A DNA stretch of 64,000 nt from assembly GCA_028534125.1 (NCBI GenBank), contig CM052816.1, positions 21,144,001-21,208,000 of the forward strand, in the 5' to 3' direction. This DNA is from Lama glama (Eukaryota). Shown in pieces: positions 754-56,076 of this stretch. Made by a program: the position numbers and the translations under genes. Under the pieces are notes generated by a model. That model did no database searches. It had not been told where the DNA came from and saw only the letters and a list, made by a program, of their open reading frames with translations. Numbering within the stretch: position 1 is the first letter of the stretch; each line of letters opens with the position of its first letter.

Positions 754-759
754 TTTATT
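754..759 (-). terminator. Candidate CCNI2 poly(A) signal (AATAAA on minus strand)
   Basis: tttatt at 754-759, ~480 nt downstream of the last-exon stop. Confidence 0.45.
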
Positions 760-1241: not shown

Positions 1242-1412
1242 CTAGACTAGAGAGGAGTCCAACCAAGAAGGGATCACCATTATGCTCCAAAGGGCATTGG
1301 GGTACGGACACAGAGGCTGGCAGGTGAAACAGAAAGTGCAGGAGGATGACTCAGAACTTGCCAGCTGCTGCTTTACTAGTTTCTTGCAGCGGTTCAGCTG
1401 CCAAATACTGAC
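1242..1412 (-). CDS. CCNI2: CCNI2 exon 6 coding part (VSIWQLNRCKKLVKQQLASSESSSCT... to TAG)
   Basis: aattacag| acceptor; first ~26 codons resemble the human last exon, then the frame departs and reads to TAG at 1244-1242. Confidence 0.7.
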   Translation of the reverse strand, partial: VSIWQLNRCKKLVKQQLASSESSSCTFCFTCQPLCPYPNALWSIMVIPSWLDSSLV

Positions 1413-2051: not shown

Positions 2052-2282
2052 CTGTGCTTTCTTTAGCAGATCAGATATAGGAGTACAGCAGTCGGGCATG
2101 AGCCTCTCCAACTCTAAGGTGATGATGACCAAGGCCAGTGTGGAGCCCTTGAACTGCAGCAGCTGGTGGCCCGCCATACAGTGCTGCAGCTGCCTGGTCA
2201 GGGACGCGACGTGGAGGGAAGGATTCCTCTGAGGCAGCAGCTCCTTCACATGGGGCCAGCCCAGGACCACCAGGCCGTGGAA
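2052..2282 (-). CDS. CCNI2: CCNI2 exon 5 ([19 protein letters not shown]...DLLKKAQ)
   Basis: ctccag| acceptor, CAG|gtagaa donor, 231 nt; near-identical to remembered human protein. Confidence 0.9.
2067..2232 (+). CDS. SEPTIN8: Septin-8 alternative terminal coding exon (upstream exons lie before the window)
   Basis: Acceptor tgtgctttctttag|C AGA TCA GAT; translation [54 protein letters not shown] (TGA 2230-2232) matches the remembered C-terminus of the long human SEPT8 isoform; synteny SEPT8-CCNI2-KIF3A. Confidence 0.9.
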
Positions 2283-3430
2283 CTGGAGACCGTGGTTTTT
2301 AACGTTAGAACAGAAAACCCCCTACTTTTCATTTATCAATGACCAAAAGTGCAAACAATTTAAAAATTTCCATCAGGGAACATCAAATGTTGTCCAGCCC
2401 TTTTCATTTCCATTCATGCCCCCACAAGGGGCTTGAGTCATGGCCTCACAAGGGGCTTAAAGCTTAATACCCACTCTGTGGCCAAGCTCAGTTTCAACCC
2501 TGGAGAGAAAAAGACAGTTTGTTTTGTAACATGGTCATTATGAGCCTAAAGTGCCCATGACAATGTTTCAATTCTGAAAAATAGAAGCCTACGATTCAAG
2601 ATTAAGGTAGCAGAAGAGTTACTTGTATCTGCTGGACATGAAAAGAAACTCTGCAACTTGGCAACAGTGACTAGTTTTCATGATACAGCCCTCAGTGATT
2701 TAATCTTCATGCTTCATAACAGACCAAAACCCCATGACATTTCCACATTGCATAATTTTGCCTTACTAACAGAATCATACCCTTAAGGATAACCATCATT
2801 CTCTAACTAAAACAAATACAAACTAATATGACATTTTTTAAGTGCCAGATCAATATATGGTCTAAAGCCTCAATAAGGATTGTGTGTAGGTGAAGAAAGA
2901 CAGCTAAGTGAATGTGTGTAAAGTGTAGCAAAAGCAGACAGATTTTTATGTACAGTATTCATAGAATGGAAAGTTACATATTTTTGCAGTGTGTATTTAA
3001 AAGAGAAACTCACCATAATAGTGCCGTCTAAAAATCTTTGTAAAGTTAATTTAATGTCCTTTAGAAGTGGGAGTCTGGTGGAACTGTGTTGGATTTAAGA
3101 TAAAATTACACTCTTCCGTATGTCGTGAGCCTGTGGGTCACCTCACTGTGATGCATGTGCAAGGATGTGTGCTTTGCCATCCTATGTTGTGAACAGCTGT
3201 TCCAAAGGCACAAATGAGTCCAGGGTAGGCTCTGGAAAGTCCTCATACTTACTATGACCAAGAAATCCAGCGGTGTCCCAATATAGTGGTCCCAGTGCAG
3301 TTTGTCCAAAATAGCCAGCTCCATCCTCAGCAGCTCATTCGGGGAATAGCCAGAGCCATAGTGCTTTATGAAGTCTTATATGCGTGGAATTAACTGTAAA
3401 AAGAAAATAAAGAGGCCAAAGCCCTACTCC
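2233..3430 (+). other. SEPTIN8: SEPTIN8 3'UTR with poly(A) signal AATAAA at 3406-3411
   Basis: Repeat-free AT-rich sequence after the stop; first AATAAA I found downstream is at 3406-3411, followed by GT/T-rich sequence; end position inferred. Confidence 0.65.
3253..3393 (-). CDS. CCNI2: CCNI2 exon 4 (LIPRI*DFIKHYGSGYSPNELLRMELAILDKLHWDHYIGTPLDFLVI), contains in-frame stop
   Basis: tttttacag| acceptor, ATA|gtaagt donor, 141 nt; codon 6 is TAA. Confidence 0.85.
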
Positions 3431-4833
3431 ATGTCATGGTAGCTTTTGTTTTCTTATCCCTGGGGGGGCTGGGCATCTATGACCCTAGTAGATTTGTCTT
3501 CTAGTGACCTGTCACTGAAGCTGCTTCTGAAAGAAAAACCAAACCAGATCTTGGCTATCTGTCAAGTCCCCAGGTACCTGTGACAATATGTAGTGAATGT
3601 CACATGGTCACCCTCTGCCAACAGGTCTTGCTCCCCAACTGTACTCCAGCTTATACCCGAAGGTGCCTTGGAGGCTGGGGCTGTGCCGTCTCCCCGATTC
3701 AGCTGTAAGAATGCACTCAAAGCTTTCCAGCTGTAGGCTCTACCCATTTCTGTTATCTTTTCCCTTGTCTTTGAGAAGAAGAGTAAGTAAGCCTTTGAGC
3801 TTCATGGTCTAAATTAGACAGATTCATTGATAAAACCTCTCATGGTTTTGGCAACACCATAGCTGCAAACACATTCCTTTCAGCCTTTATTTAAGGCAAT
3901 TCACTTCTGGAAAAACTATGACTTTTTCCCAGGGAGACTAATAAGGCTTGTCTATGAGTAAACATTCAAGTACCAAGTGCTTTGAAGGCTTGGTCCTACT
4001 TTTTTAGATAAAGTATTACTATAACCTCTAGAAATATTTCTTTCAAGGACTATTTTCTTGACTTTTAATTGGACAAAAGTATCTTGTGGGACAGAAATTA
4101 TACTCTAATAAACAGGGTTAAAATATTTTTTATTGACTGTTTGGAACTGCACACATAAGCAACTTTTTCAGGCACCCTTGGTTCCTGAGATCAGCCGAGG
4201 GAGTCCTTGTAGAAATGGTGGTGGTTCCACTATCCTGAAAGGGGAAGAGGTTGGAGGGATGGAGGAAGGGAGGTGTGGGAAGGATATTGGAAAAGAATCT
4301 TATACTAAACAGAAGCCCTAGTGCAACTGAGAAGTTCAAGCGAGCCTGAAGTACTTATGGGGGCTTCTCTTCCACCTGCTGCACATGGCCCTCATGCCCA
4401 TTTTGGAGAATGGTCCCAGAGTCCCTGAAGACCAGTTTCATTGATACAGCCAAGTCCTTAAGTCTCAAGCAACTTTCTTAGATGTAGTTTCTGAGGGGTG
4501 GCCATTAGGCCATATGGTTTGGAAGGCCTTTTCCTCTGCTTAGTGGGAGGTGGCATCTGGCATCAACCAATGAAACAACATATCATATCTGCCAGGATGT
4601 CAGGCCTCTGGCTTTGCTGGGCCAAGACCATTCAGCTGTGCTAATTCCTCATTTGTGGGGTGCCAGATTCTGGCAGTCCTTAGGAAGGAACAGCAGAGAT
4701 CCTGGATAGGTAATGAGTTTTCCAAAATGCCCATTCCCAAGAGCTCAGACCTTTCAGGAAACTTGAGTGCTCCCAGTGTTACACACCCTGATACTTCGAA
4801 AGCAGCTGAGAATGAACTTCCAGGGATGCATAC

Positions 4834-4908
4834 CTCCTCCTCTTCGTTAACTTTTGCAGCAAGTCTTAAGGAAGTAATTGTGACACAATGGAGTAAATGC
4901 TTTTTTAT
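4834..4908 (-). CDS. CCNI2: CCNI2 exon 3 (IKKHLLHCVTITSLRLAAKVNEEEE)
   Basis: ctgcag| acceptor, GAG|gtatgc donor, 75 nt; cyclin-box LAAK.EE motif. Confidence 0.9.
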
Positions 4909-5491
4909 CTGCAGTATGGAAGAAACACATTCAAGCAGAATATGAATGCCAGAAACTAACTATAAAGCATCTGTGTTTTTTTTAAGAACTTAAGTTTTTT
5001 CTTTTTAAATTTTTTAAAAAGACTGATTATATTTATCTATAAGAAAGTTAGTCCCAGTTTTAGATGTGACCAGTGATAACTTGGTTTCAGAACCACAGAT
5101 AACTGACTAGTCTAGTCCTTTGTGGGAGGACTGACTGAAGGTGGGAAATATGGCACTATCTCAGGCAACACACAGCTCCATCCTGGCCTTTCGCTGCACT
5201 GGACCAGTCCAGACAAGCACACCCCACCTCATCACATGGGGAGTCCTTTCCCAACTGTATCTTCTCATGCTCCCCAGATGGACCCCTGTCAGCCGCACAA
5301 CACTGAGCCAGACAGGCACAGTGGTAGGACATGGAGAGGTTGCAATTCCAGTTCTACCACTTGGAGCTATTTACATCGTTTATGAGCCTCAGTTTGAAAA
5401 TCTGGGATGGCTCACTTGTCAGGCAGCAATGGGAAACAGAGGTCAATTTCTGCGCCCAACATCTGTCACCATCCATCAGAGATCTCCCTAC

Positions 5492-5623
5492 CTTTACTGA
5501 AACCATGAGGCGACTGAAGATACTAAGAGCCAGGTTAAAAGTGGTCTGGGAGAAGTCAAAGATGTTCTCAATTCTCAGGAGCCATAACATGACTTCCTGG
5601 AAGGCGTCGCAGGTCTCCACTTG
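5492..5623 (-). CDS. CCNI2: CCNI2 exon 2 (QVETCDAFQEVMLWLL...LMVSVK)
   Basis: ctcttcttttcag| acceptor, AAG|gtaggg donor, 132 nt, phase 0-0. Confidence 0.85.
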
Positions 5624-5899: not shown

Positions 5900-6780
5900 G
5901 GAGAGTGCCGCCTCTTGTCTCGTGCAGGGGACGCACCTGGGGAAGGTGCTGACTCCAGGGTGCGGCTCACCTGAGCCAGGGTGCAGGCGGAACCCGGCCG
6001 CGTCCGCACGGTGCGCGCGTGAGGACGGGGATGAACGTGCTCCTGGGAGGGCCCCGCGCGAGGACCGGGGCCTGGAGTTGGCCGCCCCGCCACAGGCGCG
6101 CCTCGCGGCCCAGGGCCTGCGTCAAGTGGGCGTCCAGCTGGCGCTCGTCCACAGCGCCTGCCCAGTCTTTCGGCTCCAGGAGGCACTGGCCTAGGTCGCG
6201 GGGCGGCGGGGGTGGCTTCCACATAGCGAGGGCTGGGACGGGGCGCGCAGCTTGCCGAGCCTGCGTTGCCCTCAACCTCGGTCCGGTCCCGGACGGTGCG
6301 GGGAGCCGGGCCGCTCCACGCTGGTACGCCTCCGGGAAACTTCGGCTCGCCGCGGGGAGAGACACTTCCCCCGGAGGCGGCGAGAGAAGACAGCGAAGGG
6401 CCGTTGCGTCCGGACTCTCGCCTGGACGCTGGACAGGTCCTACCTCCGAGGCCAATGTCTGCGGCGGGGGCTGCCCGCCGGAGGCCATGGCGGCGCCAGG
6501 TCCTGGGTCTGGGTCCCGGCTTAACCCGGCTTTTTCTAACCCAGCGCCCGGGACACACAGCTGGGGCTGCGCGGGGCGGGGCGGTCTCTGCGGGCCCACC
6601 CCGCAGCCCTGGCCCGGGCGCTGGGGGCTCGCTCCTCCTGGCCACTTGCTCGCGAGGTGAGGGGCACGCACCTGGGACGCGGCGGGACAGGGCACACAGG
6701 TGGGTGAAGGATCCCCCCTACTCGTCCGGCCACCGAGCGCCAACCCACTGAGCCCCTCTTCCCCACCCTAAGTCCGAGTC
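5900..6780. promoter_or_regulatory. CpG island / CCNI2 promoter-exon 1
   Basis: Very GC- and CpG-rich; GC boxes ggggcggggcgg at ~6573-6584. Confidence 0.8.
6072..6488 (-). CDS. CCNI2: CCNI2 exon 1 coding part (MASGGQPPP...EARLWRGGQLQ, 139 codons)
   Basis: ATG at 6488-6486 in gccgccATGG Kozak context; 3' boundary placed by protein homology and followed by GCCCCG rather than GT. Confidence 0.7.

Positions 6781-11765: not shown

Positions 11766-56076
<44,311 letters not shown>

Follow-up and report, generated by a model that had tools for sequence, protein, structure and literature searches.

The sequence examined here is a 64,000-nucleotide stretch of the llama (Lama glama) genome, referred to below as the window (GenBank assembly GCA_028534125.1, contig CM052816.1, forward strand; G000:C1:21144001-21208000 in our own notation, from an assembly of 2.35 Gb in 1.07 million contigs). 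Coordinates are window positions unless a contig or locus is named. Near the start of the window lies an exon that can be read as protein on both strands: the plus strand holds the coding part of exon 10b, an alternative last exon of the septin gene SEPT8, and the minus strand holds exon 5 of the cyclin gene CCNI2. A preliminary description of this DNA had proposed both identities, and searches with the septin tail and with the cyclin exon, together with tblastn to orthologues, confirmed them. We consider it likely that this is an ancient antisense dual-coding exon common to two convergent neighbor genes, SEPT8 and CCNI2.

The septin reading occupies 2067..2232 on the plus strand and was identified from its translation, the phase of SEPT8 exon 9, and comparison with SEPT8 orthologues. 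It consists of 54 codons (2068-2229) followed by a TGA at 2230-2232, and it encodes a Trp/Cys-rich tail that begins RSDIGVQQ and contains an adjacent Cys pair. A pyrimidine-rich tract with an AG acceptor precedes it (TTTCTACCTGTGCTTTCTTTAG, 2045-2066, AG at 2065-2066), and this acceptor region corresponds, on the opposite strand, to the final cyclin codons (...KKAQ) and the 5' splice site that follows them. SEPT8 exons 1-9 were found upstream on the same strand of the same contig (C1:21132400-21137019), with exon 9 ending as ...AAG AAG AA|gtaggt in phase 2 (L012:3018). The C at 2067 completes the Asn codon AAC begun in exon 9, giving the junction ...KDKDKKN-RSDIG..., which is identical to that of orthologous SEPT8 proteins; the acceptor is therefore placed at 2066/2067 and not at 2070. 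The tail exon is thus in frame with the last common exon, via a canonical acceptor and across an intron of ~9 kb. The tail is identical to that of a Camelus ferus SEPT8 X3 model (P0288), and its adjacent Cys pair and nearby basic residues occur as in the filopodia-inducing motif of the mouse protein. The 3' untranslated region (UTR) probably extends over 2233..4130 on the plus strand, given the AATAAA signals found by a signal scan at 3406 and 4107, and would run antisense to CCNI2 intron 4 and exon 4. Were the exon 9 donor (L012:3019-3024) left unused, the frame would read ...KDKDKKK and stop immediately (AAG TAG); intron retention after exon 9 would yield a short C-terminal variant.

On the minus strand, CCNI2 exon 5 runs from 2282 to 2052 (231 nt, 77 codons, FHGLVV...LLKKAQ, phase 0/0), with an acceptor AG at 2284-2283 and a donor CAG|gtagaa whose GT is at 2051-2050. 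Its borders, like the acceptor and stop codon of the septin reading, lie where the preliminary description had placed them. The exon encodes the first helices of the C-terminal, second cyclin fold (aligned to cyclin E1 residues 148-197). Comparison with orthologues by tblastn puts its identity to goat CCNI2 at 95%, with exons 2-4 aligning as well; a Camelus ferus protein, the closest named one among the matches listed, is 100% identical over the exon. The remainder of the gene, all on the minus strand, comprises exon 1 (6063..6488, ATG at 6488), which is poorly conserved (44–54% identity to three orthologues, those of goat and rhinoceros and a primate-like one), exon 2 with the cyclin box (5474..5623) and exon 3 (4831..4914), both placed by tblastn with approximate borders, exon 4 (3253..3393), and exon 6, the last coding exon (1242..1412, acceptor AG at 1414-1413, open to a TAG at 1244-1242). 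Exon 6 sits within the last SEPT8 intron, and an AATAAA at 754..759 on the minus strand is a candidate CCNI2 poly(A) signal. The Cyclin_N domain (PF00134) was detected on CCNI2 orthologues; a Pfam search with the tail and the cyclin exon alone, two short pieces, gave no match at E<=10.

CCNI2 exon 4 contains an in-frame TAA at 3378-3376 (TTA ATT CCA CGC ATA TAA GAC), and the coding sequence of the gene is accordingly interrupted. The same site is Lys in goat, whale, and rhinoceros and in a CCNI2 retrocopy, and the TAA-bearing exon is the sole 100% copy in the assembly, with no second copy. Since this stop lies upstream of the shared exon, the earlier statement that the exon is bidirectionally coding holds for the presence of both frames and may not hold for their translation in this animal. 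On balance, we favor the view that CCNI2 is non-functional in Lama glama and that the shared exon is translated there as the septin tail only; if so, the perfect cyclin open reading frame (ORF) of exon 5 would be kept open by its coupling to the septin frame. It is appreciably less probable that both readings are translated in this animal, the TAA being an assembly error, a rare allele, or a stop bypassed by alternative splicing. In favor of that alternative, CCNI2 exons 1, 2, 3, 5, and 6 all have open frames, and apart from the TAA exon 4 matches goat at 43/47 positions; pseudogenization, if real, would be recent. The TAA is nonetheless in the only copy of the exon that the assembly holds, and the camel models do not help the alternative: in the single Camelus ferus model found (P0027), exon 2 is followed at once by exon 5 and exons 3-4 are skipped, and a dromedary protein named Cyclin-I2 (P0087) matches the retrocopy contigs (96–98%) and not the window gene, so that it seems to have been annotated on the retrocopy.

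The two frames are tightly related. As had been noted in the preliminary description, their third codon positions coincide, both falling on coordinates divisible by 3, and in this phase codon positions 1 and 2 on one strand are positions 2 and 1 on the other. Because of this arrangement the two proteins almost determine each other, and the window's own septin/cyclin pair is codon-compatible under that rule at 77/77 codons.

The tail was searched for in other septins and in non-mammals, as the preliminary description had proposed, and only SEPT8 matched, in non-mammals as elsewhere. Among longer proteins, all 24 of 24 candidates matched and were SEPT8-type or unnamed, while a profile of seven tails gave 61 matches among 614 candidates, the named ones all being SEPT8, septin-8-A, septin-8-B, or a hypothetical septin. 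Septin 6, 10, 11, and 14 do not appear among the names of these 61 matches, and the other septin loci of this genome gave no tail. The taxa represented are placentals, echidna, birds, gharial, caecilian, frogs (57% identity in Xenopus), and teleosts (septin-8-A). In the tail alignment, 28/55 columns are invariant, including SKVM, EPLNC, SWW, AIQCC, and CLV.

For the cyclin exon, one search returned 252 matches among 342 candidates, of which the best 120 are listed, and an exhaustive search returned 110 matches, ten of which were looked up. Among the matches listed were CCNI2 of mammals, birds, reptiles, coelacanth (74%), and lungfish (71%). Identity to cyclin-I was 55% in lungfish, 51% in squirrel monkey, 53% in rabbit, 48% in medaka, and 52% in dragonet; it was 47% for a char cyclin-I-like protein, 46% for a hemichordate cyclin-I-like protein, 45% for amphioxus CCNI, 43% for sea urchin cyclin-I, and 33% for a mollusc protein. 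This range of 43–55% across the cyclin-I of vertebrates, amphioxus, hemichordate, and sea urchin agrees with the earlier suggestion that the cyclin frame is the ancestral one. Judging from these protein matches, the cyclin reading appears to predate vertebrates, and the tail appears to occur only in SEPT8 of bony vertebrates.

Both readings are held by SEPT8 and CCNI2 protein models of many species, and DNA that shows both was available from the window and from one further locus. A metagenome scan with 194 pattern matches yielded a single locus with orthologous DNA, a bird-like metagenome contig (L019) whose tail is 91% identical to stork SEPT8 and whose cyclin exon is 85–90% identical to quail CCNI2. 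Both frames are open in it, its three splice borders are as in the window, and there is no indel over the 231 nt. Between genomic tail ORFs from teleosts (P0021, P0023-P0025) and the cyclin-like ORFs P0177 and P0188, 51–62 positions were codon-compatible, compared with a maximum of 27–32 in a shuffle control (200 shuffles of P0177 only, per tail ORF). The teleost match is nearly continuous from LQASLW to LLRKAQ, and the cyclin-like ORFs are the codon-by-codon reverse complement of the tail. Zebrafish is reported to have CCNI2 (PMC5256034).

The greater age of the cyclin frame supports the proposal, made in the preliminary description, that the septin tail arose by antisense overprinting. Its presence in teleosts, frogs, a caecilian, the gharial, birds, and the echidna points to an ancient event and not to a recent or mammalian one. 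Further evidence comes from the paralogous pair of genes in the same genome. Contig C2 carries a SEPT8 paralogue on the minus strand (44.212-44.245 Mb), which from the human map we take to be SEPT11, convergent with CCNI on the plus strand. The homologue of the shared exon, CCNI exon 5, lies at C2:44189672-44189944 on the plus strand with the same borders as CCNI2 exon 5, and the two cyclin exons are 51% identical in this genome (51–56% over comparisons). Read antisense in the same relative frame, CCNI exon 5 gives a 57% identical shadow of the tail, TCAF*SSSIVRGSQSGMSFSISKLIMARASMDPLNCRSWLQAIQ*SSCLVRTAKC*DGL (also given as ...SKLIMARASMDPLNCRSWLQAIQ*SSCLVRTAKC*), in which stops close the frame, TGA codons taking the place of the leading Cys in the CC pair and of the Trp in ATW. 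A stop-broken shadow of this kind is what the coupling of the frames would predict had the tail been taken from the strand opposite a cyclin sequence.

An origin before the duplication, in which the tail arose on a single ancestral septin/cyclin-I pair and was later lost from the CCNI pair, seems unlikely to us, although it accounts for some of the same observations. The convergent septin/cyclin-I arrangement is retained by both pairs (C1 and C2), and the antisense strand of CCNI (L009, G000:C2:44188800-44190400) keeps an acceptor-like pyrimidine-rich string, CTGTGCTTTCTGAAG|CAG, beside its 57% identity to the tail. That identity, however, would be expected anyway, given the mechanical coupling of the frames and the 51–56% identity of CCNI and CCNI2 in this exon, and neither the 61 profile matches nor the remaining septin loci of this genome include another septin with the tail. 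As an observation in its own right, the CCNI antisense strand resembles a latent, unused version of the SEPT8 exon lying beside a SEPT8 paralogue.

To return to the shared exon itself, its conservation exceeds what one frame alone explains. Between the window and L019, 1/15 bases differ in the acceptor and pyrimidine-rich tract (2052-2066), 26/163 (16%) in the septin coding sequence (2067-2229), 0/3 in the septin stop codon (2230-2232), and 21/50 (42%) in the cyclin-only part on the septin 3' UTR side (2233-2282). The septin coding sequence and the cyclin-only part belong to the same cyclin exon and differ significantly (Fisher p=3e-4), and the step in divergence falls at the septin stop codon. 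Compared with CCNI2 exon 4 over the same pair of sequences, positions 1 and 2 of the overlap differ at 15/108 versus 35/92 sites (p=1e-4) and the shared third positions at 11/55 versus 27/46 (p=8e-5). The preliminary description had expected wobble changes to be tolerated in both proteins. This is true in so far as 6/11 third-position differences from L019 are silent in both frames, yet the shared third positions evolve slowly as a class, and even the doubly silent sites are slow (6/~22 against a third-position baseline of 0.59 in CCNI2 exon 4, p=0.004). RNA structure was considered as a cause of the slow silent sites, and the exon was found to fold no better than its shuffles on either strand (z of +1.25 and +1.49).

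The protein comparisons point the same way. Between goat and lungfish CCNI2, 41/55 residues (75%) are conserved in the overlap and 50/114 (44%) in the cyclin box of exons 2-4 (odds ratio 3.7, p=2.5e-4), whereas between rabbit and lungfish CCNI the corresponding figures are 35/55 (64%) and 89/115 (77%; odds ratio 0.51, p=0.067). The contrast between overlap and box thus runs in opposite directions in the two paralogues. In mouse SEPT8 X2, 44 of the last 45 tail residues are identical to the window, and CCNI2 is reported to be absent from mouse and rat (PMC5256034). The preliminary description had held that such a tail in a species lacking CCNI2 would count against its account. The mouse is formally a case of this kind; the cyclin was lost secondarily there, so the mouse tail does not refute a cyclin-first origin. 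From these contrasts we infer that constraint on the shared block now seems to come mainly from the septin frame. The opposite proposal, that cyclin function alone conserves the block and the septin reading is a tolerated passenger, starts from the fact that, from sea urchin to mammals, no cyclin-I motif is better conserved than this one. We regard it as very unlikely. It does not explain why the same columns are less conserved than the box in CCNI, which has no overlap, and more conserved than the box in CCNI2, or why, within one cyclin exon, DNA divergence of 16% gives way to 42% where the septin stop codon lies; it is also at odds with the retention of the tail in a mouse without CCNI2 and with the function demonstrated for the tail in mouse neurons (PMC6092797).

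We also evaluated how often an open plus-strand frame would arise by chance, keeping the cyclin amino acids fixed and resampling synonymous codons 20,000 times. The plus frame stayed open over 54 codons in 18% of recodings with uniform codons and in 49% with the gene's own usage. The open frame alone is therefore not beyond chance; the conservation of both frames across vertebrates is, and the case for dual coding rests on that conservation and on published experiments. That the septin ORF is a chance open frame spread by annotation pipelines, in an exon that codes only for cyclin, is hardly credible despite the 18–49% of recodings that keep such a frame open, given a tail conserved from teleosts to mammals with 28/55 invariant columns, a frog-type full-length SEPT8 bearing the tail on a 3.7-kb Logan contig (P0274), and the isoform-specific antibody and acyl-RAC (resin-assisted acyl capture) experiments reported in mouse, which already refute it for that species (PMC6092797).

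Several points weigh against an ancient exon that codes for two proteins and is now held mainly by the septin frame. The splice junction from exon 9 to 2067 in Lama glama is a prediction from sequence. The experimental evidence for the two products is split between species: the function of the septin tail comes from mouse, which is without CCNI2, and that of CCNI2 from human and chicken. The exon 4 TAA comes from one assembly and could be an assembly error or a polymorphism. The changes between the window and L019 fall into six that are silent in both frames (~22 sites), six septin-only (14 sites), three cyclin-only (10 sites), and 11 that change both (104 sites), counts that are small, are drawn from one pair of species, and by themselves do not tell which frame is the better protected. 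In invertebrates, too, no stretch of cyclin-I is better conserved than the shared block (49–56% identity), so cyclin function contributes to its conservation. No shark or lamprey tail was among the matches, an absence that is weak evidence by itself; the overlap is for this reason taken to be at least as old as bony vertebrates, and it may be older.

The dual-coding exon could be produced and maintained as follows. When the proximal last exon, 10a, is bypassed, exon 9 would be spliced ~9 kb downstream to 2066/2067, within CCNI2, and 54 codons would be read from the opposite strand of the cyclin exon to give the Trp/Cys-rich tail with its Cys pair. The tail would have been recruited once from the antisense of the cyclin, no later than in the ancestor shared by all bony vertebrates. 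That ancestor dates to roughly 430 million years ago. Recruitment may have been favored by the convergent septin/cyclin-I arrangement, which, like the acceptor-like antisense string, is present in both paralogous pairs, and by the sequence of the cyclin exon end and donor (AAAGCACAG|GTAG), whose reverse complement would supply a pyrimidine-rich tract plus AG. Afterwards, the septin reading would have become the main constraint, with CCNI2 fast-evolving in mammals and dispensable.

We put forward one extension tentatively, holding it somewhat short of probable. The overprinted reading may have outlived its template, such that the septin tail is now the reason the exon survives and exon 5 is the sole conserved relic of CCNI2 wherever that gene has died (mouse, rat, and perhaps the camelid-like lineage to which this genome belongs). 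More boldly still, SEPT8 read-through antisense over CCNI2 exons 4-6 could couple the NOVA-driven choice of the palmitoylated isoform to repression, in one and the same neuron, of a CDK5 activator.

Copies of the two cyclin genes were observed elsewhere in the assembly. Contigs 88–91% identical to the exon were at first candidates for alternative haplotypes or contamination, and this was rejected, as they are fragments of a CCNI2 retrocopy that is spliced and has a broken frame. The retrocopy (L002-L008 and L015-L018, contigs of 210–315 bp) has exons 3-4-5 contiguous, carries a stop and frameshifts, and is 87–92% identical to its parent, its contigs occurring in near-identical pairs. Matches on C24 and C37 were likewise rejected as cyclin G-like genes and are CCNI processed pseudogenes. 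These intronless CCNI copies (L010, G000:C24:4160000-4161600, and L011, G000:C37:45372200-45373300) are 88% and 77–90% identical to rabbit CCNI and carry stops or a deletion, and their antisense also mimics the septin tail, with stops.

Further along the window, kinesin motor-domain exons lie on the plus strand between 14767 and 39114, with PF00225 detected in the ORFs 14767-15135, 26337-26546, 38105-38353, and 38740-39114. This kinesin gene is head-to-head with CCNI2 and, from the human map, is presumably KIF3A. One of its introns contains an L1 ORF1-like open frame on the minus strand (20655-21536), with Transposase_22, trimerization, and double-stranded RNA-binding-domain-like domains.

In animals it is rare for an antisense exon to code on both strands, and the textbook case, TR-alpha2/Rev-erb-alpha, is restricted to therians. 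Methods for measuring selection in overlapping genes are reportedly available from Wei and Zhang (2014). The overlap of SEPT8 and CCNI2 is visible in public gene models and so is not new sequence. No description of it as a dual-coding overlap was found in the literature naming both genes or in that on antisense coding overlaps, a scope that left out the supplementary tables of overlap catalogues, which could list the pair. By titles and abstracts, the literature naming both genes consists of association or selection scans and a methylation study. PMC6092797 contains no occurrence of 'ccni2' or 'antisense', and PMC5256034 (Liu et al.) makes no mention of SEPT8. On limited data, what appears to be new is how old the overlap is, the step in conservation at the septin stop codon, the inverted CCNI2/CCNI pattern, and the survival of the exon after loss of CCNI2.

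For each of the two products, the literature supports a function. CCNI2 of humans and of chickens binds CDK5 and activates it (PMC5256034), while the septin isoform is palmitoylated and shapes dendrites. The palmitoylation of the Cys cluster, mentioned in the preliminary description, is reported for C469/C470 of mouse SEPT8-X1, where it was shown in COS-1 cells with acyl-RAC and cysteine-to-serine mutants (PMC6092797). The natural knock-outs of the older gene make it testable how two frames share constraint, which of them wins, and what becomes of the exon when the partner dies. Exon variants found in human or livestock studies need scoring in both frames.

The closest known system is mouse SEPT8-X1 itself. 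The orthologous exon 10b is an alternative last exon joined to exon 9 (PMC6092797, Yuan et al. 2018), and it shares the Cys pair and the two Arg that, as C469/C470 and R475/R480, form a filopodia-inducing motif that increases dendritic arborization. The mouse differs in being without CCNI2, so that its exon is single-coding, and it is from the mouse that palmitoylation and control by NOVA are known (PMC6092797). CCNI exon 5 on C2 has identical borders, the convergent septin arrangement, and an antisense strand that is 57% tail-like; its antisense frame is, in contrast, closed by TGA, and it represents the non-overprinted state. Overprinting of the viral type similarly places a new frame on existing coding sequence and splits constraint between two frames, whereas the SEPT8/CCNI2 case belongs to a cellular genome, lies antisense, depends on splicing, and takes up a single exon. 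In THRA (TR-alpha2) and NR1D1 (Rev-erb-alpha), as here, an alternative final exon antisense to the 3' mRNA of a convergent neighbor creates a new C-terminus, and TR-alpha2 is reported to have arisen before the eutherian/marsupial split and to be absent from platypus (PMC4569393). Relative to that pair, the SEPT8/CCNI2 overlap is found in teleosts as well as tetrapods, its cyclin exon is internal and not terminal, and some lineages no longer have the older partner.

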